Source of the DNA: Christensenella sp.
GTDB lineage: Bacteria; Bacillota; Clostridia; Christensenellales; CAG-138
DNA: 64,000 bases
Assembly: GCA_034926785.1 (NCBI GenBank)
Contig: JAYFQU010000023.1
Span: 458-64,457 of the forward strand
Reading direction: 5' to 3'
The translations under genes were made by a program, and so were the position numbers. This document shows positions 399-38,370 of the stretch, piece by piece. The notes below the pieces were generated by a model. The model searched no databases, was not told where the DNA came from, and saw only the letters and a list, made by a program, of their open reading frames with translations. The first letter of the stretch is position 1; every line of letters begins with the position of its first letter.

Positions 399-426
399 AA
401 AAAAACGGCGGCACGCAGCCGTCGTT
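399..426 (-). terminator. Rho-independent terminator after the PP2C phosphatase gene
   Basis: The reverse strand reads ACGACGGCTGCGTGCCGCCGT (imperfect GC stem) followed by seven T, starting at the TAA stop (426-428). Confidence 0.55.
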
Positions 427-1607
427 TAAAAATAACTGGTTTTAATTCGCTTCCCCATCTTGGCGAGGCAGTCGGAGAGTTGTTCGATCAGGCGCATTTT
501 GAGAGGAAAGCTAATCGGCAGTTCGGGGTTTTGATGCGCAGGATTAGCCGCGCAGCCAACGAAGAAGTTGATATCCGTCGCCTCCTCAAAGAGCAGCCGC
601 GCGATGCGGGAGGCGCCGTCCCGCCCGTTACTCCAGCGCTCAAACTGACTGTTGTCCGCTAAATAGTTCCGGGCATATTCCAGAACGCGGTTAATCGTGA
701 TCACACCCTCGGTCACCAGATCCACCCCTTCAATCGTCGCCGTCGGTGGAATTTCCGGGTCGGGAAAATCCAGTTCGGCAAACAAGGGCTTGTTGAGATA
801 GTCCGCGGCAATCGTTGAGGTGGTTCCGCCGCAGACGATATGCTTCCCCTCCTTGGTGAAAAAGAGAGACATCATCTTTCCATTGTCATCCCGGCTGGAA
901 GGCGGGCCGCAGAGCAGATTCATCGGCACACGGGAGCGAATGCGTACGGTGCAGACCGTTGCATCGTCTCCGGGCGCCCCTGCGTAGAGTCGGTTTGTCT
1001 CCTGCAGCAGAATCGTCGAGAGCGTTTTTGCGGTGAACCCAACGTGCCACATGGTCTCTAGGTAGCGGATGATATCCTCGCGCCGCCAGCCGAAATTATA
1101 GATTCCGCCGACCCCCGCGTGTTCCACGCCGTCGCTCATCGCGATAAAAACGTCGTTCTCCTGCAATTTCACATCGGAGCGATAGATGCGCTTGGCGCCG
1201 ATATTGAGCATCGTAGTCGGTATGTCCATGCTCTTTCCGTCGCGAAGCAGGATCACGGAGGGATTGTCGTATTGAATGATCTCTGCCTGCTCGTTGTTGA
1301 CGAGACGCAGAATGGTAAACGTGGAATACGCGATGCCGCGCGTCGCGCAGACAGGCAGCGTCGCCGCCATGGTCTCCACGCATTCTTCCAGCCGCAGGCC
1401 GGCCGCCAGCATGGTGGACAGAATTTTCGACGTCAGCGTGGAGAGAATATTCGCCTTTACTCCACTGCCAAGCCCGTCCGCCAGAACAATGATAGTGGAG
1501 TTTTCCTCCTGATTGGCAATCTCGACATGATCCCCGCAGAGTTGTTCTCCGACGTGGTTGAGGCACATATATCCGATATCCGCACAGAGATTATTCGTTT
1601 TCCGCAT
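426..1607 (-). CDS. SpoIIE/PP2C-family serine phosphatase with an extra C-terminal domain of about 160 aa
   Basis: 393-aa ORF. It carries PP2C-type acidic motifs (CGDHVEI, VLADGLGSGVKA, AMSDGVEHAG, GDDATV). It overlaps the upstream hydS-like gene by 17 nt, which suggests translational coupling. This is the gene order reported for sensory hydrogenase loci. Confidence 0.8.
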   Translation of the reverse strand: MRKTNNLCADIGYMCLNHVGEQLCGDHVEIANQEENSTIIVLADGLGSGVKANILSTLTSKILSTMLAAGLRLEECVETMAATLPVCATRGIAYSTFTILRLVNNEQAEIIQYDNPSVILLRDGKSMDIPTTMLNIGAKRIYRSDVKLQENDVFIAMSDGVEHAGVGGIYNFGWRREDIIRYLETMWHVGFTAKTLSTILLQETNRLYAGAPGDDATVCTVRIRSRVPMNLLCGPPSSRDDNGKMMSLFFTKEGKHIVCGGTTSTIAADYLNKPLFAELDFPDPEIPPTATIEGVDLVTEGVITINRVLEYARNYLADNSQFERWSNGRDGASRIARLLFEEATDINFFVGCAANPAHQNPELPISFPLKMRLIEQLSDCLAKMGKRIKTSYF

Positions 1608-3270
1608 TCGTGATCGATTCCTTCAGTTTGGTCAGCGCAATCTTGGTTTCAGCGGTCGTCTCCCCCAGCAGCGAGGCGATCTCCTGCACAACGCGCATCT
1701 GTTTTTCTACCACGCGGTCGGCAATCTCGACCGTCTGCCGACTGATGAGCTCCTTTTCACGGCGGCTCTCCTCCTCTGTGGTGACGTCGCGCAGAATCGC
1801 AATCAGGATATGCGTTGTTCTGTCGTGCACAATGGTGAGCTCCAGATACTTATTGTATTCCGCATAGTAATCCCGCTGTTCGCGGATGGACTTTCCGTTA
1901 TCCAGCGCGTTTAAAAACGGCTGCGGATCCATGATGCGAATCAACTGCTCGCCCAGCACATCGCCCTCCTGCCGGATATGCAGCATGCTCATCGCAGCCG
2001 CGTTAACCTGCTGCACCTCAAGGTCCTCGTTAACCACGAGGATGCCGTTGGGCGTATGCCTCAGAATATTGTTGGAGAACCGCTCCGTTTTCTCCATCAG
2101 GAACGGCAGGCACATGCTGATATCCGCCTTGCCGCGGTAAACGGCTATCGCCTTTTCACGGCAGGTGTTGTAGCCGCAGCTGCCGCAGTTCAGTTCATCC
2201 TCCGGCTTCAGCTTGCCGGTTTTGGCAAGGATTTCGCGAATCTCCGACTCGGAAGGAACCACGTTGGTCACGCCAATATAACCGTGGCGCCTTGTCAGAG
2301 CGCCTTCGGAGAGCGAATCGACAGCAAAATCCCGCTTCCCGGCATAGGTGGTCACCGCCTGATAATGGCGCACGGGCGAGTTATTATATTTTTCCATCAC
2401 CGGTCCGCCGATGCAGCTGCCCGCGCAGGCGCTCATCTCCAGAAAGCAGTTTTTGATGTTTCCGGCGGCGATGTCCTCCAGCGCGGCGCGGCAGTTTTCC
2501 GTGCCGTCCACGCTCAGGCAGGTGTAACCGGTCTCCGGGATGTCCATGGTCTTGAGGATCCCTCCCACGGTGGGGAAAAATCGCGCGCGGCTTTCCTCCG
2601 CATAATCCAGCCGTGCCTCCGGTTCAATGCCCGCCGCGGCAAACATGCGCGAGAGCTCGTCAAAGGTGAGCACCGCGTCTACGGGGCTGTTCTCCGCTTC
2701 GTCTTTTTTGGAGAGGCATGGGCCGATGAATACCGTCTTTGTGCCCGGCATGCGGCGCTTGATGTCCATACTGTGCGCAATCATCGGTGAAACAACCGGC
2801 GAAAGACAGCGAATCAGCTCAGGGTAGTATTTCCGAATCAGCAGATTAACCGAATGACAGCAGGAACTGATGATCACATCCTCCGTTCGGTCGCGCATCT
2901 GCTTTTCATACTCGCGCTTCACCAGCGTTGCGCCGATTGCGGTCTCCTCCGCCTCGGCAAAGCCGATCCGGAGCAGCGCCTCGCGCATCGCGGAAATGCC
3001 GACCCCTTCAAAATAGGCGGCAAACGACGGCGCAAGGCTCGCAACCACGGGCGCCTCCCCATACAGCATCGCCTGCACAATCTCGGTGCCATCCGCAATT
3101 TCCTTCGCATTTTGCGGGCAAACGACAAAACACTGGCCGCAGAGGATGCATTCCTCGCTCACAATATGCGCCTGATTCGCGGAAAACCGGATGGATTTCA
3201 CCGGGCAGTGGCGAATGCATTTATAGCAGTTTTTACAGTTTGATTTTTTTAGTCTGAGGACACTCGACAT
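1591..3270 (-). CDS. hydS: Putative sensory [FeFe]-hydrogenase (group C, HydS-like): ferredoxin domain, H-cluster domain, Cx2Cx4Cx16C motif, PAS domain
   Basis: N-terminal 2x[4Fe-4S] motifs (CKNCYKCIRHCP, CILCGQCFVVCP). H-cluster motifs are present but altered: SSCCHS, GPCLSKKDE, EMSACAGSC. The catalytic HydA in this window has TSCCPAW, MPCTAKKFE, EVMACPGGC. CGSCGYNTC-x16-C is followed by a PAS-like segment (ILRHTPNGILVVNEDL...ILRDVT). Start trimmed to ATG 3270 (MSSVLRLKKSNCKNC); ATG 3291 is an alternative. Confidence 0.85.
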   Translation of the reverse strand: MSSVLRLKKSNCKNCYKCIRHCPVKSIRFSANQAHIVSEECILCGQCFVVCPQNAKEIADGTEIVQAMLYGEAPVVASLAPSFAAYFEGVGISAMREALLRIGFAEAEETAIGATLVKREYEKQMRDRTEDVIISSCCHSVNLLIRKYYPELIRCLSPVVSPMIAHSMDIKRRMPGTKTVFIGPCLSKKDEAENSPVDAVLTFDELSRMFAAAGIEPEARLDYAEESRARFFPTVGGILKTMDIPETGYTCLSVDGTENCRAALEDIAAGNIKNCFLEMSACAGSCIGGPVMEKYNNSPVRHYQAVTTYAGKRDFAVDSLSEGALTRRHGYIGVTNVVPSESEIREILAKTGKLKPEDELNCGSCGYNTCREKAIAVYRGKADISMCLPFLMEKTERFSNNILRHTPNGILVVNEDLEVQQVNAAAMSMLHIRQEGDVLGEQLIRIMDPQPFLNALDNGKSIREQRDYYAEYNKYLELTIVHDRTTHILIAILRDVTTEEESRREKELISRQTVEIADRVVEKQMRVVQEIASLLGETTAETKIALTKLKESITNAENE

Positions 3271-3305
3271 TCTATTTCTTTCTTGCAGCATGCCGCCGCA
3301 TTGTT

Positions 3306-3575
3306 TTATTTCACTTCCGCCTGGCCTCGTTTGGAAGTGAGGCGCGGTGCAATCTTCTGAATGAAAAACAGCTCCGCCGTATCCGGGGAAAGCGAGTAAT
3401 ATTCGCCGTCCAGCTGCACGCTGACCCCGGTTTGGCAGTGGTTCATGCAAAACGAGCCGCCAAGATGAATCTGTCCCTCCGCCGCATAATCCTGTATCAT
3501 TCGTCTGAGACGTTCAACCACCTCGCGCGATCCTTTCAGGTGACAGGAACTCCCGATGCACACCGTGATGTTCAT
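3306..3575 (-). CDS. Small thioredoxin-like [2Fe-2S] ferredoxin-domain protein
   Basis: MNITVCIGSSCHLKG...FCMNHC has four Cys in the CX4C...CX3C spacing. It is a paralog of the 84-aa ORF at 32874-33128. GGAG lies 8 nt upstream of ATG 3575; the track ORF starts at an upstream GTG. It is the first gene of the hydS operon. Confidence 0.75.
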   Translation of the reverse strand: MNITVCIGSSCHLKGSREVVERLRRMIQDYAAEGQIHLGGSFCMNHCQTGVSVQLDGEYYSLSPDTAELFFIQKIAPRLTSKRGQAEVK

Positions 3576-3632
3576 ACGCCACACTCCAATCGGTCAACGA
3601 ATCCATGCGATCCGCATGTTTCGATTTTGTTT

Positions 3633-3669
3633 TATCGATATTATAATACCGATATAAGAAATCTGTCAA
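3633..3669 (-). promoter_or_regulatory. Sigma-70-type promoter of the hydS operon with an abutting ATCGATA box
   Basis: The reverse strand reads GGTTGACAGATTTCTTATATCGGTATTATAATATCGATAAAACAAAATCGAAAC. That gives TTGACA (3664-3669), an 18-nt spacer, TATAAT (3640-3645), then ATCGATA (3633-3639). It is nearly identical to the hydC promoter at 28588-28623. Confidence 0.7.
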
Positions 3670-3813: not shown

Positions 3814-6126
3814 TTAGACGCATTTTTGTTTCAATACGCTCATGCGCTTCTTCTTCTTTTCTTCATAGAGATATCGATCCGCCTCGTTAACAATCTGGCT
3901 GATCTCCAGGTTGTGCTGGCAGGTAAAATATGCGATCCCCATGGATGCCTCCACATAATACGGGCGGGTCGAATTACGATTGTATTCGTCAAACGCCTGC
4001 CGTATCCGGCTGGTAAACACCTCTCCAAAATCCGGACTATCCACAATAAACATGCCGACGAACTCATCGCCTCCAAGGCGCGCAATCAAATCATTCCGTC
4101 GCACGGCCTGCTTGAGGATATCGCTCAGCGCGGAGAGTGCCATATCCCCCTCCGAATGGCCAAAGGTGTCGTTGATCTCCTTGAGGTGATCCAAATCCAT
4201 AAAGACACAGAGCCCCGGTTTGCCCGCGTTTTCGCGGTTGAGGCGTATCGCCTGCTCGATAAACCCGCGACGGTTGAGAATGTTGCAAAGCGGATCATAG
4301 TCCGAAAGAAAGTTTAAAATCTGGTTCCGCTCCCGAATATTCTCCAGCTCACTTCCGATGATCTGTTCCTTCCGCTTCAGATCTAAAAAGTTGATGAGAA
4401 TTCCGAGCTGCAGTCCAATCACATGCAGCAACGAGCTGCGCGCCATGTCCACTTCGCAAAGCAGAATGCCATATTGGATATTGCCGGAGAAAATGCTAAA
4501 GCTCATCAGATGCGTGTGCCGCTCCAGCCCAGGCAAGTCTCTGAGCGGGTGCGTTGTATCGATCACCGGCATCTGCGCCCGCGCAAAAGCGCGCACGTCG
4601 TCCTTTCGGCCATACGCGGCGAGCAAAAGCTTTTCCGGCGCATGCTGCACCTGAGAGGTTTGCAGCGGCTGCGCCTCCGGCAGCAGACAAATGTAGATAG
4701 AGTTGAGATTGATCCCGCGCAGCCGTTTCACAATATTATAAAAAATGCTTTCCTCTTCTAAATCACTGTCCACCAAATCCCGGATGAACTCCGGAATAAA
4801 CCAGGACTGCGCGCGGAAATCGTCCAGATTTTTCTCCACCATCCGAGCCTTGTAGGAAAGCAAAAATCCCTGCGTAAAGCCAAGAACATCATAGAGTTTC
4901 CTCACCTTTGGAACCCGCAGGTTCTCCGCCGGCATCTGCCCCAAATACTCGTTCAGCCGCAAGGCAACATGATAGGTCGCACTGGTAAACTCATCCGTAA
5001 ACGTCTGCATCCAGTCGGCGAACCCATATTGATCGATCTTCGCGTCGGTTTCAATCTCTCTCTCCAATCGGCCAATCAGCCGATCGATCATGGTCTCGCT
5101 GCGCTCCCGTTCGCTGCCGTCGTAGCAGGCCTTCAAATCGGCGGCGATTCGCTGCAGCACGCAATCCGCATACAGCGCGCAGTCGATCCCTTCCAGTGAA
5201 AACAAATTGAGTTTCGCGTCCGGCAAACAGCCGCAGGATCGACGGATCTGCAGTTTCGTCTCCAGCTTCGTCGAGGATACGGGTCTGCCGCAGACCAAAT
5301 CGACCGCCTTGAATACCGCCATCTCACCCATCTCGTAGATATTCTGCGAAACCGTAGTCAACGGCGGCATCAACGTCCTGCTCGTAGAAAAGTTATCGAA
5401 TCCCGTAAACGCGATATCCTTGCCAACTCTGATCCCACGTTTTGCGCATTCGCGATATCCGCCCCGCGCCATCTCGTCGTTGCAGAATGCAATCGCGTCT
5501 ATGTCCGGATTCTCGTCGAACAGCCGCGACACCAGCGGATCGGAAAATTCGGAAAAATCGCCATAGGCGATCATCGATTCCTCCACCGGCAAATCGTATT
5601 TTCTCATGGTGTCGAAATACGCGCGCATCCGCTCTTTGATGTCGGGATGATTTTTTACCCCCGCGAGCAGGCAGATCTTATGGCAATGATGCGCCACGAT
5701 CAAATGCTCGATACACTGGCAGAAACTCGAGTAGTTATCCACCGTAATACAGGATTTGTTTGACTGATCCATATCGATCTGTTCCTGCAAAATAACGGAC
5801 GGCGTCTCGTCGAACCGCTTCAGGAACTGCTGGTAGGTATTTTCGCCGTCAAACCCCGATAGGGAACCGCAGGATAGAATGTAGGCGTCCGCGCCGAACA
5901 TATAGGCATAGTCGTAGATGCTGTTGTGATGATACGCGGTTATTTGCTCACTGCCGGGCTCAATAAACCCCGCGTGCCTGGGCATCCCCATCATGTAAAG
6001 AACCTGCACGCCTTCCCGCTCAGCGGTATTCAAAATTCCCTGCATTAGTTCCATAGAAAAGTCATAGCTCACGTCGCCAATCATCACGCAAAGTGAAATT
6101 TGGTTTCTTGTTTGATGCGTCATCAT
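3814..6126 (-). CDS. Cytoplasmic diguanylate cyclase (GGDEF) with an N-terminal LacI/periplasmic-binding-protein-fold sensor domain
   Basis: The C-terminus reads ...FMDLDHLKEINDTFGHSEGD...RRNDLIARLGGDEFVG. This shows an intact GGDEF motif and an RxxD I-site five residues upstream. The N-terminal ~300 aa resemble sugar-binding folds without an HTH or TM segments. The start is uncertain: ATG 6126 (MMTHQTRNQ, with AGAGGGAG upstream) is preferred over 6207/6216. Confidence 0.8.
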   Translation of the reverse strand: MMTHQTRNQISLCVMIGDVSYDFSMELMQGILNTAEREGVQVLYMMGMPRHAGFIEPGSEQITAYHHNSIYDYAYMFGADAYILSCGSLSGFDGENTYQQFLKRFDETPSVILQEQIDMDQSNKSCITVDNYSSFCQCIEHLIVAHHCHKICLLAGVKNHPDIKERMRAYFDTMRKYDLPVEESMIAYGDFSEFSDPLVSRLFDENPDIDAIAFCNDEMARGGYRECAKRGIRVGKDIAFTGFDNFSTSRTLMPPLTTVSQNIYEMGEMAVFKAVDLVCGRPVSSTKLETKLQIRRSCGCLPDAKLNLFSLEGIDCALYADCVLQRIAADLKACYDGSERERSETMIDRLIGRLEREIETDAKIDQYGFADWMQTFTDEFTSATYHVALRLNEYLGQMPAENLRVPKVRKLYDVLGFTQGFLLSYKARMVEKNLDDFRAQSWFIPEFIRDLVDSDLEEESIFYNIVKRLRGINLNSIYICLLPEAQPLQTSQVQHAPEKLLLAAYGRKDDVRAFARAQMPVIDTTHPLRDLPGLERHTHLMSFSIFSGNIQYGILLCEVDMARSSLLHVIGLQLGILINFLDLKRKEQIIGSELENIRERNQILNFLSDYDPLCNILNRRGFIEQAIRLNRENAGKPGLCVFMDLDHLKEINDTFGHSEGDMALSALSDILKQAVRRNDLIARLGGDEFVGMFIVDSPDFGEVFTSRIRQAFDEYNRNSTRPYYVEASMGIAYFTCQHNLEISQIVNEADRYLYEEKKKKRMSVLKQKCV

Positions 6127-6494
6127 GGGTGTTACAAGCTCCCTCTTCGGCAGCCCGGTGTCGCGGGCACTGCGCTTTGCCGTCTGTTTGATCTTCGGTG
6201 AAAACATCGCGCGCAAGAATAGAAATTCATACTTGATCTACAAGTACATTTTTATGTGAAAAGAACGATGTGCAACACTTCGGTTTGCTGAAACAGTAGC
6301 TGCAATCAGCAGTAAACAATCCTCATTTTTATTGTATTCTCGATCTGTGCGCACGTCAATGCTTCAATCCGTGCATTTTTAAGCTGTTCTTAAGCGTATT
6401 CGATTCGTCTTTTGCCTCATTGTCCTCCACGTCTCTATTCTTATATGTACGTTCCTTTCTTGTATGTCCGATGGTAAGCGCAGAGAATGGCCAT

Positions 6495-26738: not shown

Positions 26739-28355
26739 TCACCGTTTGTCTCCTCTTCGGTATTCGCTCGGCGTACACCCGGCAACTTTTTTAAACACAA
26801 AACTGAAATAGTGGGAATCTCGAAATCCCACGGCAAACGCGATTTCGCTGGAGCGCATGTCCGTCTGCCGGAGCATGCGCTTTGCTTCGGCGATTCGCTT
26901 TCCGGTCAAATATTCGATAAACGTCTGCCCGATTTCCTGGCTGAACATGGCGGAGAAATAGTTGGGACTGATGTTCACCTTCTGCGCCACGCGGTCGAGC
27001 GACATGGTCTCTTCGGCGTAGTGTTGATCGATGAATCCGATCGCCTGCGCCAGCAGGTCGCGCTGCTGTTTTCGGCTTTCGAGGTCTCTTAGCCCGATGG
27101 CATGCAGCATGATCTGGCGCGCATACAGGCGCACCTCTTCCGGCGAGGAGATGTTGTCTCTGGGGCGCAGTTCCGGCGGCCAATAGCTCTCGCTCCGGCC
27201 GCCGATAGAATCCAAATATGCAACCGACGCAAAATAGACCGTCATGGTCAGATAGCGGCAGAACATAGGCAGCGGGGCGGTTCCGCTGCCCGCGCTCTCC
27301 AATAGTTGGTCGATAAATTGATCGATCTCCTCCGCCGTTCCCCCGCTTAAAAAGCAGCGGATGCGCTCCTGATCAATCTCCTGATTGCCGGATCGGGAAT
27401 TTGAGCCGCTTTTCCCGCGCAGGTTTTGTATGCTCGCTTCCGAGAGGATATGTTCCTCCGGGCAGAGATAGCGGTAGGATAGGATGCGGCTTGCTTCGGC
27501 AAAGCAGGCGGGCAGTGCGCTGAGGCGCGAAACCGCGGTGCCGCTGGCGATATGCCAGTTTACCTCATGGCCGGCCTCTGCGCAGAGATGTTCGAGGCTG
27601 TCCAGGCAGCCCTCTGTCCGCTGGCCGATCTCCTCCTTCGCACCTTTGATCAACACCGCATAGGTCGAGATGTTCCAGCGGAACAGGATCAGTTCGGAGT
27701 GGCTGACCAGCATCTTTGTCACCTGTTCCTGCAGGGCGGCCAGCGCCTCCGAATACCCTTCCGGCGCGCTGCCGTCGTACTCCGCGCTGCTCAGCGAAAA
27801 GAGCAGAATGTTATAGTATGGCGCATTGAGTTCTATCTCCAGGGCCTTCGCAGTTTCGGAAATCTCCGAAACGCTCAGCCCTCCGGTAACAATCTGCTCA
27901 AAAAAGCGCCTGCGGGAGAACACCTCATATTCCTGCGCCTCGCGCTGGAACATCGCGAGATACTCCCGCTGCTGCTGCTCGGCCTCCATCTTCTTCTGGA
28001 GAGAAATCAGCAGCTCTACGAGTTTTTCTTTGACGACGGGTTTGAGCAGATACTGCTCCACCCCCATACGAATCGCCTGCTGTGCATAGGCAAAATCGTC
28101 ATATCCGCTGATAATGACAATTTTGGTGCGGGGCAGTTCCTTTCGGATCAGCTCGCTCAGCGCGAGTCCGTCCATAAACGGCATCTTGATGTCGGTGATT
28201 AAAAGATCGGGCTGTATCTGCCGAATCAGCGGAAGCGCAAGCTCGCCGTCCGGCGCATCTCCGGCATATTCAAAGCCATACTGCTCCCATTGGATGTTTT
28301 TTCGTATTCCCTCTCGCATCACAATCTCATCTTCGACCAGAAAAACCTTAAACAT
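26739..28355 (-). CDS. Response regulator with AraC-type DNA-binding domain (YesN-like)
   Basis: A REC domain (MFKVFLVEDE...LLITDIKMPFMDG) plus a C-terminal AraC HTH (SPNYFSAMFSQEIGQTFIEYL...GFRDSHYFSFVFKK). Start trimmed from 28445 to ATG 28355. Confidence 0.85.
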   Translation of the reverse strand: MFKVFLVEDEIVMREGIRKNIQWEQYGFEYAGDAPDGELALPLIRQIQPDLLITDIKMPFMDGLALSELIRKELPRTKIVIISGYDDFAYAQQAIRMGVEQYLLKPVVKEKLVELLISLQKKMEAEQQQREYLAMFQREAQEYEVFSRRRFFEQIVTGGLSVSEISETAKALEIELNAPYYNILLFSLSSAEYDGSAPEGYSEALAALQEQVTKMLVSHSELILFRWNISTYAVLIKGAKEEIGQRTEGCLDSLEHLCAEAGHEVNWHIASGTAVSRLSALPACFAEASRILSYRYLCPEEHILSEASIQNLRGKSGSNSRSGNQEIDQERIRCFLSGGTAEEIDQFIDQLLESAGSGTAPLPMFCRYLTMTVYFASVAYLDSIGGRSESYWPPELRPRDNISSPEEVRLYARQIMLHAIGLRDLESRKQQRDLLAQAIGFIDQHYAEETMSLDRVAQKVNISPNYFSAMFSQEIGQTFIEYLTGKRIAEAKRMLRQTDMRSSEIAFAVGFRDSHYFSFVFKKVAGCTPSEYRRGDKR

Positions 28356-28587
28356 GGAATATTCCCTTCTGACAGGTAAATATCTCGAATTATATGATGT
28401 GCAGAATCCCCCATAAATTATGTTCTGTTTTAAAACAATCAACAATAGATTTTTTTATGATATTGGTCGGATTTTGTGGTTTCTCCTCTTCATTTGCGAA
28501 ATGCTGGCTCCTGAGCCGTACGGATCGGTATGCGCGCCGTGGCGAATCGGAATTCACAGATAAATTCTCCCCCCCCCCGTAAAGTGG

Positions 28588-28650
28588 TTGACAGAATTGC
28601 TATTCAGTATTATCATATCGATACATTATATCGATATCAATTAATCGATA
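28588..28650 (+). promoter_or_regulatory. hydCBA promoter with three ATCGATA boxes
   Basis: TTGACA (28588-28593), a 17-nt spacer, then TATCAT (28611-28616). ATCGATA occurs at 28617-28623, 28630-28636 and 28644-28650. The -35 and -10/box-1 segments are nearly identical to the hydS promoter. Confidence 0.7.
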
Positions 28651-28790
28651 TGGATACGACCCAAGTCTTTCCTTCTGGCGTCTGTTTGCGAAGAACGAGC
28701 GCCGCACGGGCGGAACCGCGACCAGCCGCAAAAGGAAAGCGATCCGAAAACACTTCATTCACGATACTACGCCGGAGGAACGAAACACCC

Positions 28791-29294
28791 ATGCAATCAA
28801 CATTCGATTATGGCGCGCTGGATGAAATTCTGCTGGCCAACGGCACAGAGGAATCCGCCGTCATCGCCATCCTGCAGGACATTCAGGAGCGCTATCGCTA
28901 TCTGCCCAGAGAGGTATTCCCCTATCTCGCGGAGAAGATGCGAATCAGCGAGGCGCGCATATTCTCTGTCGCAACCTTCTACGAGAACTTTTCCCTGGAG
29001 GCAAAAGGGCACTTCGTCATCCGCATCTGTGATGGAACGGCCTGCCATGTTCGAAAATCGATCCCAATTTTAGAGTTTTTACGCAAGGAACTGTGCTTAA
29101 GCGAGGATAAGCGAACCACCGACGACCTTGGCTTCACCGTGGAGACGGTGTCCTGCCTCGGCGCATGCGGCCTCGCGCCTGTTTTAACCGTGAACGACAA
29201 GGTCTATCCCGCCATGACGCCGGAGAAGGCCGGCGAACTGGTTCGCGCCCTGCGGGAGGAACTCGCGGCAAAGGCCGAGGAGGAAGCACGATGA
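28791..29294 (+). CDS. hydC: [FeFe]-hydrogenase NuoE-like [2Fe-2S] subunit
   Basis: LQDIQERYRYLPREVFPYLAEKMRISEARIFSVATFYENF...ICDGTACHVR...VSCLGACGLAPV. GGAGGAA RBS. Start trimmed from 28530 to ATG 28791. Confidence 0.88.
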   Translation: MQSTFDYGALDEILLANGTEESAVIAILQDIQERYRYLPREVFPYLAEKMRISEARIFSVATFYENFSLEAKGHFVIRICDGTACHVRKSIPILEFLRKELCLSEDKRTTDDLGFTVETVSCLGACGLAPVLTVNDKVYPAMTPEKAGELVRALREELAAKAEEEAR

Positions 29295-31168
29295 AACTCA
29301 GCAGTCAAGCCGATCTTGCCGCCCTGCGAAAAACCTGCGCCTACGCACGTTCCCTCGAAACCAAGCGGATCCTGGTCTGCGCCGGAACGGGCTGCGTTTC
29401 CAGCGGCTCGATGGAGATTTTTGCGCGTCTCCAATCGCTCATGGAGGATCGAAATATACCCGTGTCCGTTGAACTGGCGGAGGAGCCGCACGGCGAGCGC
29501 GTCGGCCTCAAGGAATGCGGCTGCCACGGTTTTTGCGAGATGGGACCGCTGGTGCGCATCGAACCGCAGGGCTGGCTCTACACGAAAACGCAGCCGAACG
29601 ACTGTGAGGAAATCATCGAGCGCACGATTCTGCGCGGCGAGCGCATAGAGCGGCTTGCGTTTGTCAAGGAAGGCGAACGCTATCCCCGCCAAGAGGAAAT
29701 CCCGTTTTATCAGAAACAAACGCGGCTCGTGCTGGAGCACTGCGGGCAGATTGACGCCACCAGCATCCGCGAATATCTCGCAATCGGTGGCTACAGCGCG
29801 CTGGAACAGGCGCTCTTTTCGCGCACGCAGGACGAAATCATCGACGAAATCATAAAATCGAACCTGCGCGGACGCGGGGGCGGCGGTTTCCCGGCCGGAC
29901 AAAAATGGTCCCAGGTACGCCGGCAGAACACGGAACAAAAATACATTGTCTGCAACGGCGACGAGGGCGATCCCGGCGCGTTTATGGATCGCAGCGTCAT
30001 GGAGGGCGATCCGCACCGTATGCTTGAAGGCATGATGATCGCAGGTCTTGCCTGCGGCGCGAGCAAGGGATATATCTATGTTCGCGCGGAGTATCCGCTC
30101 GCGGTCAAGCGTCTGCGACGCGCAATCCGGCAGGCGGAAGATCTCGGGCTTCTCGGCGGGCGAATTCTTGGCACCGGCTTTTCCTTTCGCCTGCGGGTGG
30201 CGCGCGGCGCAGGCGCGTTCGTCTGCGGCGAGGGCAGCGCGCTGACCGCCTCTATCGAAGGCAAGCGCGGCATGCCACGTGTGAAACCCCCGCGCACGGT
30301 GGAGCACGGCCTGTTTGACAAACCGACCGTACTCAACAATGTCGAAACCTATGCGAATGTGCCGCTGATCATCAACCGCGGCGCAGACTGGTATCTCTCC
30401 ATCGGGCCGCGGAACAGCCCCGGCACAAAGGCCTTTGCGCTGACGGGCAACATCGTCAACACGGGGCTTATCGAAGTGCCGATGGGCACCACCCTGCGCG
30501 AGGTGATCTTCGACGTCGGCGGCGGCGTTCGCGGCGGCAAGGCGTTTAAAGCGGTGCAGATCGGCGGGCCATCGGGCGGTTGCCTGACCGCGGAGGATCT
30601 CGACCTGCCGCTGGACTTTGACTCGCTCAAGAAGGCAGGCGCAATGATCGGCTCCGGCGGACTCGTCGTCATGGACGAGGACACCTGCATGGTGGAGGTC
30701 GCGCGGTTTTTCATGCACTTTACCCAGAACGAATCCTGCGGAAAGTGCGTGCCCTGCCGGGAGGGAACCAAGCGCATGCTTGCGATATTGGAGCGCATCG
30801 TTGAGGGCAAGGGCGAGGAGGGCGACATTGAATTGCTGCTGGAGCTGGCGGACACCATCTCGGCCACTGCGCTCTGCGGCCTCGGCAAATCCGCCGCTTC
30901 CCCCGTCGTGAGCACCATCCGCAGCTTCCGCGCGGAGTATGAGGCGCATATTCGGGACAAGCGCTGCCCAGCCGGCAGTTGTCAGAGGCTCAAGCGCATC
31001 CGGATCGACCCCACGCTATGCAAGGGCTGCTCCAAGTGCGCAAAAGCCTGCCCGGTCGGCGCAATCTCCGGGCAGATTAAGCATCCCTATTCGATCGATG
31101 AGACAGCATGTATCCGCTGCGGCGCATGCGCAGCGACCTGCGCATTCCACGCGGTTATGGAGGGTTAG
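29291..31168 (+). CDS. hydB: [FeFe]-hydrogenase NuoF-like FMN/NAD(H)-binding subunit
   Basis: An N-terminal Trx-like [2Fe-2S] (VCAGTGCVSSG), the NuoF core (GRGGGGFPAGQKW, NGDEGDPGAF, ESCGKCVPCREG), and a C-terminal 2x[4Fe-4S] (CKGCSKCAKACP, CIRCGACAATC). The ATGA overlaps the hydC stop. Start trimmed from 29165. Confidence 0.9.
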   Translation: MKLSSQADLAALRKTCAYARSLETKRILVCAGTGCVSSGSMEIFARLQSLMEDRNIPVSVELAEEPHGERVGLKECGCHGFCEMGPLVRIEPQGWLYTKTQPNDCEEIIERTILRGERIERLAFVKEGERYPRQEEIPFYQKQTRLVLEHCGQIDATSIREYLAIGGYSALEQALFSRTQDEIIDEIIKSNLRGRGGGGFPAGQKWSQVRRQNTEQKYIVCNGDEGDPGAFMDRSVMEGDPHRMLEGMMIAGLACGASKGYIYVRAEYPLAVKRLRRAIRQAEDLGLLGGRILGTGFSFRLRVARGAGAFVCGEGSALTASIEGKRGMPRVKPPRTVEHGLFDKPTVLNNVETYANVPLIINRGADWYLSIGPRNSPGTKAFALTGNIVNTGLIEVPMGTTLREVIFDVGGGVRGGKAFKAVQIGGPSGGCLTAEDLDLPLDFDSLKKAGAMIGSGGLVVMDEDTCMVEVARFFMHFTQNESCGKCVPCREGTKRMLAILERIVEGKGEEGDIELLLELADTISATALCGLGKSAASPVVSTIRSFRAEYEAHIRDKRCPAGSCQRLKRIRIDPTLCKGCSKCAKACPVGAISGQIKHPYSIDETACIRCGACAATCAFHAVMEG

Positions 31169-31173
31169 GCCAT

Positions 31174-32877
31174 ATGCAAGAGAAAGAATTCATGACCGTG
31201 GACGGCATCCCGGTAGAGATCAACGGCGAAAAAAACCTGCTGGAGCTAATTCGAAAAATCGGCATCAAACTCCCGACGTTTTGCTATCATTCGGAACTCT
31301 CGGTCTACGGCGCCTGCCGCATGTGCATGGTGGAGACCGCGCGCGGCGACCTTGAAGCCGCCTGTTCCACCCCGCCAAAGGCCGGCATGACGATTAAAAC
31401 CAACACCGAACGACTCCGCCGCTATCGCAAAAACATCCTTGAACTCCTGCTCGCCAACCATTGCCGGGACTGCACCACCTGCGGCAACAACGGAACCTGC
31501 AAACTGCAGGATCTTGCGATGCGATTCGATATCCGCGGGGTGCGTTTCCCCAATACGGCGCCCCGCCAAAAACGGGATGACTCCTCCCTCTGCATCACGC
31601 GGGACGCCAGCAAATGTATCCTCTGCGGAGACTGTGTGCGCATGTGCAGCGAGGTGCAGCATGTCGGCGCAATCGACTTTGCCTATCGCGGCTCACGGAT
31701 GGAGATCAGCACCGCGTTCGGCATCCCGATTGCCGCGTCGCCCTGCGTCGGCTGCGGGCAATGCGCGGCGGTCTGCCCGACAGGCGCAATCGTCGTCAAG
31801 GACGACTTAAACAAGGTTTGGCAGGCGCTGGAGGCGACGGACGTCAAGGTGACCGCGCAGATCGCCCCCGCGGTTCGCGTTGCGCTCGGCAAGTCGTTCA
31901 ACCTCCGCGACGGTGAAAACGCGATGGGTAGCATCATCGCCGCCCTGCACCGCATGGGATTTGACGAGGTATACGACACCTCGCTCGGCGCGGATCTGAC
32001 CGTGCTGGAGGAGAGCGAGGAGTTGCTGGGGCATCTGGAGCGGGAGAAAGCGCTCCCGCTGTTTACCTCCTGCTGCCCCGCTTGGGTGCAGTATTGCGAA
32101 AAAAACTATCCCGACCTCCTGCCGCATATTTCCTCCTGCCGCTCGCCGATGCAGATGTTTGCCTCGGTCATCAAGGAAGACGGCAAAACCTCCTCGCGCA
32201 GGCAGTTTCACGTTGCCGTCATGCCCTGTACGGCAAAGAAGTTTGAAGCCGTGCGGGACGAGTTTTGCGTGAACGGCGCGCCGAATGTGGACGCGGTCAT
32301 CACCACGCAGGAGCTCATCCGAATGATCAAGGAATCCGGCATCGTGTTTGAGGAGCTGGCGGCGGACGCAGTGGATCTTCCGTTTGGCACGGTCTCGGGC
32401 GCGGGCGTCATCTTTGGCGTCACCGGCGGCGTTACGGAGGCCGTATTGCGCCGCCTCGCCTCGGATAAATCACGCGGAGGGCTCTATTCCTCGGCCTATG
32501 CCGGCGTGCGCGGCATGGAGGGCGTCAAGGAGGCGCGGGTGCCCTATCAGGGAAGCGAACTCAGGATCGCCGTAGTCAGCGGGCTGGACCATGCCGACGC
32601 GCTGATCCAACGTATCCTCTCCGGCGAGGCGCACTATGATTTTGTCGAGGTCATGGCCTGCCCCGGCGGCTGTGTGAGCGGCGCAGGACAGCCCTACGGC
32701 TCCTCCTGCGCAAAGGCCGAGCGCGGAGACGGGCTCTACGCGGCCGACCGCCTCTCCAGCGTCAAGCGCTCCGAGGAAAACGCGCTGGTGCAGTCGCTGT
32801 ACGGCGATGTACTCAAGGGCAGAGTGCACGAACTGCTGCACGTGAACTATTCGAAAAAAGGAGGTCGCGACGCATGA
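31174..32877 (+). CDS. hydA: Catalytic [FeFe]-hydrogenase subunit (group A3-type, M3 architecture)
   Basis: An N-terminal [2Fe-2S] and the accessory clusters are present. Canonical H-cluster motifs are TSCCPAW, MPCTAKKFE and EVMACPGGCVSGAGQP. GGAGGG lies ~10 nt upstream of ATG 31174. Start trimmed from 31108. Confidence 0.92.
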   Translation: MQEKEFMTVDGIPVEINGEKNLLELIRKIGIKLPTFCYHSELSVYGACRMCMVETARGDLEAACSTPPKAGMTIKTNTERLRRYRKNILELLLANHCRDCTTCGNNGTCKLQDLAMRFDIRGVRFPNTAPRQKRDDSSLCITRDASKCILCGDCVRMCSEVQHVGAIDFAYRGSRMEISTAFGIPIAASPCVGCGQCAAVCPTGAIVVKDDLNKVWQALEATDVKVTAQIAPAVRVALGKSFNLRDGENAMGSIIAALHRMGFDEVYDTSLGADLTVLEESEELLGHLEREKALPLFTSCCPAWVQYCEKNYPDLLPHISSCRSPMQMFASVIKEDGKTSSRRQFHVAVMPCTAKKFEAVRDEFCVNGAPNVDAVITTQELIRMIKESGIVFEELAADAVDLPFGTVSGAGVIFGVTGGVTEAVLRRLASDKSRGGLYSSAYAGVRGMEGVKEARVPYQGSELRIAVVSGLDHADALIQRILSGEAHYDFVEVMACPGGCVSGAGQPYGSSCAKAERGDGLYAADRLSSVKRSEENALVQSLYGDVLKGRVHELLHVNYSKKGGRDA

Positions 32878-33128
32878 CCCAGCTTTCGGTCTGCATTGGC
32901 AGCGCCTGCCATCTCAAGGGAGCATACAACGTCATCTCCACCTTTCAGCATATGATTGAGGACTATCAGCTCCATGATCAGATTGTATTTGCGGCAACAT
33001 TCTGCACGAGGGAATGTCATAGGCCGGGCGTGAGCGTGACGCTAAACGGGACGAAGTCTGTCATCGCCGCGGAAGATGCGCGCCGCTTTTTCCGCGAAGA
33101 GGTTTTACCAGCCATCCCGCATCAGTAA
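32874..33128 (+). CDS. Small thioredoxin-like [2Fe-2S] protein, HydD-like fourth gene of the hydrogenase operon
   Basis: MTQLSVCIGSACHLKG...FCTRECHRPGVSV. It overlaps the hydA stop by 4 nt and is a paralog of 3306-3575. Confidence 0.75.
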   Translation: MTQLSVCIGSACHLKGAYNVISTFQHMIEDYQLHDQIVFAATFCTRECHRPGVSVTLNGTKSVIAAEDARRFFREEVLPAIPHQ

Positions 33129-36043: not shown

Positions 36044-37500
36044 GAAAACTGCCTTTCGTTCCGCCGGAAGCCGTGTTCACAATGCTTCCGAGCAAGATGA
36101 TCGCGCCCTTCCCGCGCCGCGGCTTGCCTCGCCTGAGCGTAACCGGGTCAGCCGCAACCGTTAACACTGCGGCAAATGCGCTTATTTTCTGTGACATTGT
36201 ATGATTTAAGGCACATTTTCAACGCCAATTTGCACATTTTTTCGCAGGATTGTCGCCCGCAATCGTTCGTTTAACGCCCGAATAAACACATTTTAACAGT
36301 TTATACTTCCGTATCCTGTTTCGCGTACGATTCAATCCGGCCTGCGGTCTTTTTGCCGAGAGCCGAAAGGCACGCCTTGCTCTGTTATCCCCAATTGTTC
36401 CTATTATACAATCGATGGCAACCGAAGTCCATATCTTTGCCTTTATCGCGGCGCTCAACAGCTTGCCCGCGCAGGAAACCATCTACCTCCGTCAATGTTT
36501 CTATGCGTAAAGCCAACGAACCAGGCCAAACGCATCGCAGTTGGGCGGCAGGTCTGCTCGGCAGGGGCTAAAATCGCACGGCAGGCGGGCAGTTGAGCGC
36601 GCAATCAGCCGCCCGTACGCCGCCCATTGTTCGCCGGTGCGCTAAATAATAGAAAGCGTCTCAACCGCTCCGGCCGTTGCTTTATCCTCGGCCAAGTCGA
36701 ATTTCTGCCAGATATACCCCTCCAAAATCTCGCATTTCTTACTCAAATCGGCGCGCCACAGAACGATGCGCCTGAACCTCGCTGTTGCAGTGTGTATTCA
36801 TGCCGTAAGTTACATTGTAATATTACCGTATAGTATGGCTGTATAATCACTTGACAGTAGTCCGTTTATTTGATAAGTTATGCCCTGTAGATGTTTGTAG
36901 AGTGCCGGAGTTTTTTTCATCGACGCATGGCGAACTTCCCGGAAAACTGTTAATATTTCATGAATTTTATCGGTTTTTTATGCAATCGATCTGCGTTTCG
37001 GTTACTATTGTTACAAGGTGTTTATGCAGGCAACACAGGCAATTTGGCCCGAACAGACCTATGACACGGCAGCTTAATATCACGCATAATGTTAAGTAGC
37101 CTCAGCCGAACTCCAGGCGGATCCACGGAACAGCCCGATTGCGTTTAAAACCGTCAAATTAAGTAACAATACGATGCCATGCAACCGGTTCATTTATACA
37201 GAAATCGAATGTTTTTGCTCCCACGGGTGGTATCTATGCATCGCAGAATGCCACAAAATGTTGGTATGAGTCTGGCCCGATGATCGTTGGTTTTGCGGTT
37301 TGGCTGCTTGTCTCCGCTATCCTTCGGAAGGATCGTCCGCACAAGCCCAACGGGTTAACACGTTTTTGCAGTATTTCGTTCAAAAAGACGTTTCCCCGAG
37401 ATACTGTCCGGTGTCTGCCCGCAGGGGGCGTGCGCTGTCATTGCTTCCCGTGATCGGCGCACTTTGATATCCATATATTGATGCGTTTCTTCCCATGTAT

Positions 37501-37580
37501 ATGGCACACCCGGCGAAAGCCGGGGTCGCAAAGCTAAAGGGCCTACCGGCACGCAATTGCCCATGGTAGCCAGCCGCCGA
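37501..37580 (+). promoter_or_regulatory. c-di-GMP-I (GEMM-I) riboswitch aptamer, by-eye match
   Basis: The sequence is AUGGCACACC-CGGC-GAAA-GCCG-GGGUCGCAAAGCUAAAGGGCCUACCGGCACGCAAUUGCCCAUGGUAGCCAGCCGCCGA. A GAAA-capped P2 is flanked by GCAnACC / GGGnCGC. The CGCAAAGC junction is present. The P3 arms are CCUACC / GGUAGCC, followed by an AGCCAGnnGCCGA tail as in known class I aptamers. Confidence 0.75.
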
Positions 37581-37647
37581 ATGAAGAACGCGCGTTTTCA
37601 TGCGTCAGGCATGTTATTTGGTTTATCGTCTATCCATCTATAAACGC

Positions 37648-37686
37648 AGCGGTTCAAATTCGCGGGAATTTCGAACTGCTTTTTTT
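37648..37686 (+). terminator. Rho-independent terminator acting as the expression platform upstream of the tad operon
   Basis: AGCGGTTCAAATTC-gcgg-GAATTT(c)GAACTGCT followed by a further run of six T (37681-37686), about 50 nt before the RBS AGGAGA and ATG 37738. Confidence 0.75.
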
Positions 37687-37737
37687 GTTCCCAAAAAGTA
37701 AACCTCTGGTGTTATTTTGAATTGAACAGGAGAACCC

Positions 37738-38370
37738 ATGATGCAAGTTTTACTGCCGGTGCTGTCTGGCGCTGCATTGGGCGCCGCGCTGGCGGTGCCC
37801 GTCCGGCTGATCTCGGCATTTTTGCTCCGGCAGCGCGGATTAGCCCCTGAGATGGAGCAAAACCATTTCGTGATACTCCTCGCGAGCCTTGTGCTCACCG
37901 GCGGCGCCATCGGGTGGCGCGCGGGATTTTCGTTTCACGGACTGTATCTTGTGTTCGTGATGGTGATCTCCGCCTGCGCGTTTTATATTGACGCAAAGCA
38001 CCGGGTCATTCCAAACGAGCTGGTGCTGGCGATCCTGCTTCTCACCGCGCTGTTTGGCTTTACGGGCGCAATCCCCTTTCGGATCTGGTCCTCTCTGCTG
38101 GGCTTTGCAGCGTGTTTTGTCATCTTTTTTCTGCCGAGTCTGTTTGGGAAAAACATCGGCGCGGGAGATGTCAAACTTGCGGCGGCAATGGGGTTTGCGC
38201 TCGGCTTAACGGGCAGCCTCTACGCGGTTGTCTGCATGGGACTTCTGGTGCTGGCATACGTGCTTCTTGACAAGCGCATGCCGCTGCCGCAGAGATTGAA
38301 GGAAATGATCCCTATGGGGCCGTTTCTTGCGCTGGCGCTGGTCGTCGTGCTATTGGTGCCTCAGGCATAG
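37738..38370 (+). CDS. tadV: Prepilin peptidase, A24 family (TadV/CpaA-like)
   Basis: Multi-TM protein with YIDAKHRVIPNELV and the catalytic GAGDVKLAAAMG box. It is the first gene after the riboswitch/terminator. Confidence 0.85.
   Translation: MMQVLLPVLSGAALGAALAVPVRLISAFLLRQRGLAPEMEQNHFVILLASLVLTGGAIGWRAGFSFHGLYLVFVMVISACAFYIDAKHRVIPNELVLAILLLTALFGFTGAIPFRIWSSLLGFAACFVIFFLPSLFGKNIGAGDVKLAAAMGFALGLTGSLYAVVCMGLLVLAYVLLDKRMPLPQRLKEMIPMGPFLALALVVVLLVPQA

Follow-up and report, generated by a model that had tools for sequence, protein, structure and literature searches.

ATCGATA boxes at the hydCBA and hydS promoters of a Christensenella genome as probable tandem operators of a second, divergent Rex-type repressor

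The 64,000-nucleotide (nt) stretch of Christensenella sp. DNA analyzed here (contig JAYFQU010000023.1 of assembly GCA_034926785.1, hereafter referred to as the window) carries two hydrogenase-related operons on opposite strands, namely the hydCBA operon and the hydS operon, the latter of which groups a sensory [FeFe]-hydrogenase with a small 2Fe-2S protein and a PP2C-type phosphatase (Table 1). This study concerns the ATCGATA boxes that recur at both promoters and the regulator that may read them. A sequence-only reading of the window had described the two promoters as nearly identical. Both are present as it had quoted and placed them, and their likeness is real, as the local alignment of the upstream regions covers 39 nt from the -35 element to the first box with a score of 46, compared to 17.6 +/- 2.2 (maximum 29) for shuffles of the same regions. 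The hydC and hydS promoters have in common GGTTGACAGA and the -10 region, and in both of them ATCGATA-type boxes recur about every 14 nt. The similarity is significant and restricted to functional elements, namely core promoter and boxes. A longer duplicated segment around the promoters was considered and rejected, as the similarity ends at 39 nt. Judged by a sigma-A consensus scan, which gave 11/12 for hydC and 12/12 for the hydS operon, both are near-consensus sigma-A type promoters (TTGACA, 17-18-nt spacer, TATAAT), and transcription of hydCBA would start near 28623 (+).

As read from the sequence, the boxes line up as inverted repeats of 18 bp, TCGATA-N6-TATCGA, that follow one another in tandem with a register of 14 bp. 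The box TATCGATA has twofold symmetry, which allows successive boxes at 14-nt intervals to be taken as a chain of 18-bp repeats, each sharing a box with the next. Consecutive operators would thus have one palindromic TATCGATA box in common, and three to four boxes would amount to two to three operators. The spacing of 13-14 nt had been taken for a helical-turn periodicity; it would instead be the register of tandem operators with shared boxes. In each promoter, the -10 hexamer falls within the AT-rich spacer of O1, and O2 and O3 are expected to lie over the start and the early transcribed region, roughly from +1 to +30. The earlier reading of the boxes as repressor sites at the transcription start was supported, as they form a conserved operator that overlaps the -10 element and the start, with the same promoter and operator recurring in many genomes. 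The TCAGTA/TCGGTA left arm of O1 is kept in 81 promoters of other genomes, and the box at the hydS O2 position is kept in the hydS promoters of relatives. When two neighboring dimers share a TATC/GATA box, the expected major-groove contacts of each would fall on its own 4-bp half, next to that of the other, so that side-by-side loading of dimers is conceivable.

The sequence-only reading had named as its refuting case that the motif is a repeat family or genomic background. This is not so, as operator-level matches are confined to the two promoters. With up to one mismatch, TCGATA-N6-TATCGA occurs three times in the window, all at these promoters, compared to 0.13 expected matches, and none of 100 shuffled windows reached three. 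With a looser mismatch limit, the pattern fades into the background (31 found versus 26 expected). The heptamer ATCGATA alone is mildly enriched (23 versus 9.4 expected), and seven of the 23 copies are at the two promoters.

Table 1. Operons, promoters, boxes, and proposed operators at the two hyd loci of the window.
Feature	Position	Strand	Description or basis
Regulated hydCBA operon	28791..33128	+	Pfam, tblastn map, start codons
hydC (NuoE-like)	28791-29294	+	Pfam
hydB (NuoF-like)	29291-31168	+	Pfam
hydA	about 31174-32877	+	Pfam
Small ferredoxin-like open reading frame	32874-33128	+	35% tblastn similarity to 2Fe-2S protein only; no Pfam hit
hydCBA sigma-A-type promoter	28588..28616	+	-35 TTGACA 28588-28593, 17-nt spacer, -10 TATCAT 28611-28616
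hydC boxes ATCGATA	28617, 28630, 28644	+	Three exact copies
hydC O1 (proposed)	28604..28621	+	TCAGTA-TTATCA-TATCGA; two mismatches; -10 hexamer in central spacer
hydC O2 (proposed)	28618..28634	+	TCGATA-CATTA-TATCGA; perfect arms, 5-nt spacer instead of 6
hydC O3 (proposed)	28631..28648	+	TCGATA-TCAATT-AATCGA; one mismatch
Regulated hydS operon	426..3575	-	Pfam, open reading frames
Small 2Fe-2S thioredoxin-like protein, heads hydS operon	3575-3306	-	Pfam
HydS sensory [FeFe]-hydrogenase (H-cluster domain, Fe-S motifs, PAS)	3291 or 3270 to 1591	-	Pfam
PP2C/SpoIIE-type phosphatase	1607-426	-	Pfam
hydS-operon sigma-A-type promoter	3640..3669	-	-35 TTGACA 3669-3664, 18-nt spacer, -10 TATAAT 3645-3640
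hydS-operon boxes		-	ATCGGTA / ATCGATA / ATCGAAA and weak ATCGCAT; CG centres exactly 14 nt apart
hydS O1 (proposed)	3635..3652	-	TCGGTA-TTATAA-TATCGA; one mismatch; -10 hexamer inside
hydS O2 (proposed)	3621..3638	-	TCGATA-AAACAA-AATCGA; one mismatch
hydS O3 (weak, status uncertain)	3607..3624	-	TCGAAA-CATGCG-GATCGC; three mismatches; 14-bp register with O1/O2

An exact pattern derived from the hyd promoters (TTGACA-N11/12-CRGTA-N-TA-NN-ATATCGATA; 20 fixed bases and one R) was used to scan 185,579 species genomes comprising 596 Gb. It matched 81 times in other Clostridia genomes, compared to roughly 1-2 matches expected from the pattern and the database size. About 56 of these 81 matches are located 20-80 nt upstream of a gene, the first open reading frame (ORF), for a protein of about 217 amino acids (aa) that starts like MEKHTPVSISKQALQRMPYYLQALR...LNEVQVRKDFA...GKPKTGF and whose gene is termed rex2 in the following. 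The other matches precede fdx-hydS (14), L-lactate dehydrogenase genes (ldh, five), adhE (three), hydC (one, locus L156), and a trpB-like gene (one, L130). Several genomes have two matches on the contigs covered, usually at rex2-adh and hydS (e.g., OY762962.1, OW818651.1, and the metagenome-assembled genome (MAG) with loci L156 and L120). As the third box of the rex2 promoters, which lies outside the search pattern, is also conserved as ATACTGATA, these promoters have a palindromic three-box array. In the five ldh cases (L104, L106, L131, L138, L146), promoter and operator are followed by a conserved leader, which has a terminator-like hairpin (aggattgcggcgg ... ttgcccagtcctttttttacg) about 60-110 nt past the operator and 190-300 nt before the start codon. 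This leader may be an attenuator or a novel riboswitch; Rfam models matched neither the ldh leaders nor the trpB-like leader behind the same promoter.

The gene behind the operator can be assigned to the Rex family of repressors from its product. The protein of about 217 aa passes the NCBIfam model NF003994 (redox-sensing transcriptional repressor Rex) with 275.6 bits at a cut-off of 130, as do the rex products of clusters L036 and L004. Its best matches among solved structures are Rex proteins at about 30-34% identity, with Rex of Thermoanaerobacter ethanolicus first (E = 6e-31) and those of Thermotoga maritima, Streptococcus agalactiae, Bacillus subtilis, and Thermus among the others. The L036 protein has the Pfam domains Put_DNA-bind_N (winged helix) and CoA_binding (Rossmann), and the GxGxxG motif is present in the alignment of this subgroup. 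We refer to the divergent subgroup within NF003994 that is typified by Clostridium thermocellum Rex_1799/Cthe_0422 (Clo1313_1799) as Rex2. C. thermocellum is reported to have two Rex proteins. The motif of Rex_2471, as determined by DNA affinity purification sequencing (DAP-seq), is TTGTTAANNNNTTAACAA, and the paralogue Rex_1799, which is 34-36% identical to characterised Rex and differentially expressed under stress, was reported without a motif or regulon (PMC8457756). The Rex_1799 sequence taken from the supplement of that study (PMC8457756) aligns clearly within the Rex2 subgroup, with the wing SRPKLGY and the recognition helix LNDVQVRKDL. Whereas the sequence-only reading could not assign a regulator, the gene most consistently found behind the operator encodes a Rex-family repressor of NF003994.

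The association of rex2 with the operator was also seen in a set of loci that was chosen blind to the motif. We fetched 80 rex2 loci by protein similarity to Clo1313_1799, 56 of which have non-coding upstream sequence. In 30 of the 56, an operator with up to one mismatch was found within 260 nt of rex2 (24 perfect, six with one mismatch), compared to four of 345 size-matched control windows taken from these loci. All perfect matches have the N6 spacing, and operators that co-occur in twos or threes start at intervals of exactly 14 bp. The scan did not return the locus of C. thermocellum itself, and relatives with up to 92% identity to Rex_1799 stand in for it. The promoter layout in these Acetivibrio loci is that of the window: three to four boxes come directly after a TTGACT/TACAAT promoter, and rex2, adhE, and a kinase gene follow. 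A further 28 rex genes that were found via synteny with HydS mostly have box arrays upstream. The architecture of the arrays, their conservation, their linkage to rex2, and the set of genes behind them are direct observations.

We further analyzed 80 loci from a HydS protein-guided scan, which are at most 82% identical. The closest ones (L001-L003) have kept TTGACA...TATCAGTAnTAnnATATCGATA together with a third box 14 nt further on. In L001, L002, and L004, the genes form a contiguous fdx-hydS-PP2C-hydC-hydB-hydA cluster, and the PP2C-hydC gaps of about 140, 80, and 25 nt, respectively, contain neither a box array nor an obvious promoter. The gene order is the same in L113 and L126, and in these five loci a single promoter probably drives the genes that the window divides between two operons. 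That the two promoters are nearly identical, which had been taken as a sign of shared regulation, does point to a common operator but also reflects history, as hydS-PP2C-hydCBA is a single cluster in relatives. The split arrangement of the window is shared by L156, which has 84% nucleotide identity to the window across 7.4 kb upstream of hydC and whose hydC promoter has kept its own three boxes with diverged spacers; the MAG that contains L156 also has rex2-adh behind the same promoter (L120).

Three observations on the two leaders and their surroundings and one on relatives are added here. A run of ten C residues at 28569-28578 (+), 10 nt 5' of the hydC -35 element, is absent from the hydS promoter and could vary in length by slippage. 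Both leaders share ATGGATnCG just past the last box, at 3600-3612 (-) and 28648-28658 (+) (CATGGATTCG / TATGGATACG), at a distance of 10-11 nt from the last CG and thus outside the 14-bp register. Relative to L156, the hydC leader is extended by about 100 nt, with the extra stretch 28655-28760 (+) bordered by an 8-bp inverted repeat (CTTTCCTT ... AAGGAAAG). Two rex2-type genes are found in some Lachnospiraceae (L088, L124, L157, L090, L170, L172, L229, L241), the first of which heads rex2-LysR-adh and the second of which is directly upstream of hydCBA; in some loci, this second gene follows an ORF whose C-terminus resembles GltD/NfnB-type oxidoreductases, as read from the translation.

The operator can be compared with what is known about DNA recognition by Rex. 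Canonical Rex operators read TTGTGAA-N4-TTCACAA or, in Clostridia, TTGTTAA-N4-TTAACAA (C. acetobutylicum Rex, Rex_2471, T. maritima Rex). With up to two mismatches, this consensus does not occur in the window, and matches with three mismatches were found only at 28428 and 45162, off the promoters; canonical Rex boxes at the hyd promoters were therefore rejected. The sequence-only reading had held that the motif is not of the Rex type. It does differ from the canonical box, but it has the same 6-N6-6 geometry and would be a diverged Rex operator. In the structure of T. maritima Rex with NAD+ and DNA, Arg48 reads the G at half-site position 3 and Lys49 reads positions 5 and 6, and Arg60 and Gly61 of the wing read the T's at positions 2 and 1 via the minor groove; a glycine-rich wing, GxxGxGY, was described as strictly conserved in characterised Rex proteins (PMC8836258). 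Arg52 of the Rex2 recognition helix is invariant, Lys53 is present in every Rex2 sequence of our alignment, and the TCGATA half-site retains G3 and A6, the bases read by the conserved Arg and Lys. No characterised Rex protein has the same wing or the same loop before it: Rex2 proteins carry G(K/R)PKxG(F/Y) in place of GxxGxGY, with Pro/Lys aligned to Arg60/Gly61 of T. maritima. The operator has changed from T to C at position 2, where the Rex2 wing is altered, and also at position 4, which already varies among known Rex operators (TTGAGA in T. maritima versus the consensus TTGTGA). This co-variation of wing and operator is suggestive and would fit binding by Rex2.

Taken together, we consider it probable that the ATCGATA boxes are tandem operators of a Rex2-type redox repressor, which would repress both hyd operons and be relieved by NADH. 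From the analogy to characterised Rex proteins, we infer physical binding, repression, and the response to NADH as follows. At low NADH/NAD+ ratios, Rex2 dimers would occupy O1-O3 and occlude the -10 element and the start, sigma-A RNA polymerase would be blocked, and fdx-hydS-PP2C and hydCBA would be repressed together. A rise in NADH would lead to its binding to the Rossmann domain and to release of the repressor, and the bifurcating hydrogenase and the sensor module would then be made. The HydS sensor and the hydrogen-producing hydrogenase are thus probably switched together by the NADH level. HydABC-type bifurcating hydrogenases dispose of NADH. The logic of such a mechanism matches the enzyme, with the hydrogenase as an NADH sink and the products of adh, adhE, and ldh as alternative NADH sinks. 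The operator targets that were found, hydCBA, the hydS module, adh, adhE, and ldh, are NADH-linked fermentation genes, and adh, adhE, ldh, hydrogenase, and rex genes are the usual content of Rex regulons in other Firmicutes (PMC8457756). In related genomes, the same operator would control adh, adhE, ldh, and also rex2 itself, and the layout for such autoregulation was found in about 56 of the 81 pattern matches as well as in the 30 motif-blind rex2 genes described above; autoregulation of Rex_2471 is conserved in the C. thermocellum study (PMC8457756). The suggestion of a common repressor that unites the HydS module and HydCBA in one regulon is supported by the occurrence of the same operator before hydS, hydC, adhE, adh, ldh, and the repressor gene.

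Several points weigh against this assignment to Rex2. The 64 kb of the window contain no rex gene; rex2 would lie outside of it, and the presence of Rex2 in this organism is deduced from relatives. Rex_1799 was included in the DAP-seq panel, and sites were reported for 11 transcription factors only, among which Rex_2471 was the sole Rex (PMC8457756). The operators are not all regular, with a 5-nt spacer in hydC O2 and a weak hydS O3. The recognition helix is close to that of canonical Rex, and the change in specificity would have to rest mainly on the wing. In NADH-bound T. maritima Rex, Asp191 forms a hydrogen bond to Tyr100' (PMC8836258). This Asp191 aligns with Asn in most Rex2 proteins, and for this reason discrimination between NADH and NAD+ by Rex2 is not assured. 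Furthermore, about 45 loci of an Oscillospiraceae type, which comprise genes for a LysR-type regulator, Rex, AdhE, a Ser/Thr kinase, two 2Fe-2S proteins, HydS, PP2C, and HydA2, have their box pair or array (e.g., TATATCGATAAATACAATACCGATAT) just upstream of the -35 element, in the interval that separates the LysR gene from the rex or adhE promoter, which is an activator-like position. A canonical clostridial Rex box TTGTTAA-N4-TTAACAA (TTGTTAAAATATTAACAA) often lies over the -10 element there. This dual layout, with the array 5' of -35 and TTGTTAAAATATTAACAA on -10, is seen in many relatives, among them L034 (5510), L045 (5259), L069 (5311), and L157 (about 4900), and hydCBA loci of some Lachnospiraceae likewise have an array upstream of -35 and a canonical Rex box on -10. 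Array and canonical box on one promoter suggest that both Rex paralogues control these loci or that the boxes act differently there, and the two elements in the Oscillospiraceae-type loci could belong to different proteins.

In many genomes, a LysR-type gene keeps close synteny with the motif, and the boxes might be bound by this regulator of about 305 aa as an activator or repressor, with rex2 merely being a target. In the Oscillospiraceae-type loci, the gene ends 20-150 nt 5' of the array, and the array just upstream of -35 is in the classic position of a LysR-type binding site; in Lachnospiraceae-type loci, the gene follows rex2 in the same operon. LysR-type regulators recognize T-N11-A boxes, and the dyad CGAT-N7/8-ATCG is about as long as their recognition sites. 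Nevertheless, we regard binding by this regulator as quite improbable. The window has no homologue, and the gene is absent from about 30 Christensenellaceae-type rex2-adh loci, which are nearest to the window, as well as from the Acetivibrio rex2-adhE loci, all of which have the operator. Among the 80 motif-selected loci, only 19 contain it, always downstream of rex2, and the strict 6-N6-6 geometry with a 14-bp register is Rex-like and not of the recognition and activation binding site (RBS/ABS) layout of LysR-type regulators. The LysR regulator was thus downgraded as the leading binder after the genome scan, with rex2 as the universal neighbor and no LysR-type gene in the clade of the window. 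The syntenic protein has an HTH_1 domain and no match to the Pfam LysR substrate domain (L036 4293-5216, L006 5222-6133, L124 2170-3084), and its gene in Oscillospiraceae and Lachnospiraceae is closely linked to rex2, adh/adhE, and the HydS cluster, with a position just upstream of the array or just downstream of rex2.

It is also rather improbable that the boxes belong to some other, unlinked factor, such as an output regulator of the HydS/kinase/PP2C pathway that co-regulates rex2. Every operator target belongs to or adjoins the HydS module, the position before rex2 could reflect control of rex2 by another factor, and an effector between HydS/Hfs and adhE has yet to be named (PMC5707799). 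However, the motif is not regularly accompanied by any further DNA-binding gene, the operator geometry and the retained bases fit Rex contacts, and, as cited above, autoregulation is a conserved trait of Rex_2471. That there is no operator at all, and that the promoters merely share strong sigma-A elements and descend from one ancestral promoter at an operon split, is highly improbable. Much of the shared sequence is indeed -35/-10 consensus, the similarity is limited to 39 nt, and the two operons are one in relatives, but the boxes past -10 are kept across families while spacers diverge, the register is exact in dozens of genomes, with arrays upstream of -35 in others, and the operator matches in the window exceed expectation. 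An action of the AUCGAUA repeats in RNA, as a protein-binding or structural element of the 5' leader, is hardly credible: boxes 2 and 3 would be part of the transcript and can pair in a predicted fold, but the first operator arm lies upstream of the expected start, the whole array is upstream of -35 and thus untranscribed in many genomes, and the hydC leader fold is not better than that of shuffles (z = -1.49), with no Rfam match. Spo0A 0A boxes, Fur/Zur boxes, a sigma-D -10 element, cre sites, and CsrA GGA motifs were dropped as well, as sequence and spacing do not fit and the comparative data point elsewhere.

Coming back to Rex2 as the binder of the boxes, rex2 is almost always encoded beside HydS, kinase, and phosphatase genes. 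In a more far-reaching and doubtful extension, Rex2 might be the DNA-binding output of H2 sensing by HydS: kinase and PP2C would modify Rex2, and the multi-dimer array would integrate H2 pressure, alongside NADH/NAD+ or in its place, and thereby direct fermentation toward either H2 or ethanol/lactate.

Two genes flank the promoters. A GGDEF diguanylate cyclase with a periplasmic-binding-protein-like domain is encoded upstream of the hydS operon (3814-6216, -), and an AraC-type response regulator from a two-component system for sugar sensing is encoded divergently from hydC (26739-28355, -); neither is linked to the box motif in relatives. The sole Rfam match in the whole window, with none at the hyd promoters, is a cyclic di-GMP-I riboswitch aptamer (RF01051, 70.4 bits) at 37493-37581 (+), before a 210-aa ORF (37738-38370), with a terminator-like hairpin and T-run near 37660-37690 in between. 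A TTGATATCCATATATTGA palindrome at 37464-37481 looks like a part of the riboswitch promoter rather than a Rex2 site.

It is well documented that Rex regulates fermentative hydrogenases and alcohol dehydrogenases. What appears to be new here is the variant operator, its arrays in a 14-bp register, and their assignment to a second Rex paralogue; we found no description of a ATATCGATAT / TATCGATA-type operator or of a second-Rex regulon in the searchable literature. A second, divergent Rex beside adhE and HydS genes occurs in many Clostridia, including cellulolytic Acetivibrio related to C. thermocellum, gut and rumen Oscillospiraceae, Lachnospiraceae, and Christensenellales. With the tandem TCGATA-N6-TATCGA defined, a concrete candidate regulon comprising rex2, adh/adhE, ldh, the hydS module, and hydABC can be given. 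H2 sensing may thereby be connected to the ethanol/H2 branch point, a link that hfsB/hydS engineering studies had left open, and a natural pair of paralogous repressors with related but distinct operators, in which the helix is kept and the wing is changed, is well suited for studies of Rex specificity.

In comparison with known systems, the proposed operator resembles the canonical Rex operator in being an 18-bp inverted repeat with 6-N6-6 arms (TTGTTA-N6-TAACAA or TTGTGA-N6-TCACAA) and an AT-rich spacer that overlaps core promoter elements. The half-site keeps T1, G3, and A6 of canonical Rex and shares T5 with the clostridial variant. The protein also has the winged-helix and Rossmann domains and the conserved recognition-helix Arg/Lys of canonical Rex, and the targets are NADH-reoxidising (hydrogenase, adhE, adh, ldh) plus rex itself, as in Rex regulons. 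In contrast to canonical Rex, the half-site is TCGATA instead of TTGTTA/TTGTGA, with differences at positions 2 and 4, and the operators occur in arrays of two to four, strictly in 14-bp register and with palindromic boxes in common. Rex_1799 of C. thermocellum, whose gene neighbors adhE, belongs to the same subgroup by sequence and has close Acetivibrio orthologues behind three to four boxes, before adhE and a kinase gene; unlike for that protein (PMC8457756), a motif and a candidate regulon are proposed here.

The arrangement of the boxes also has an analogy in Fur-type arrays. The Fur box can be read as overlapping 7-1-7 repeats that place dimers on different faces of the DNA. In both cases, short inverted repeats overlap or abut, and several dimers could load side by side on one promoter, but Fur is an unrelated protein family with another repeat length and register. 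With respect to gene content, the hydS operon is like the HydS/HfsB clusters of Ruminococcus albus (hydS) and Thermoanaerobacterium (hfsABCD), with small 2Fe-2S proteins, a HydS with PAS domain, and PP2C. In most relatives, the HydS module is joined to rex, adhE, a Ser/Thr kinase gene, and hydA2 or hydCBA; unlike these, the cluster in the window lacks kinase, rex, and adhE. Studies of HydS/Hfs proposed signaling by phosphorylation and left the DNA-binding output unidentified (PMC5707799), and the present analysis goes beyond them in that it proposes a cis-element together with a candidate regulator.

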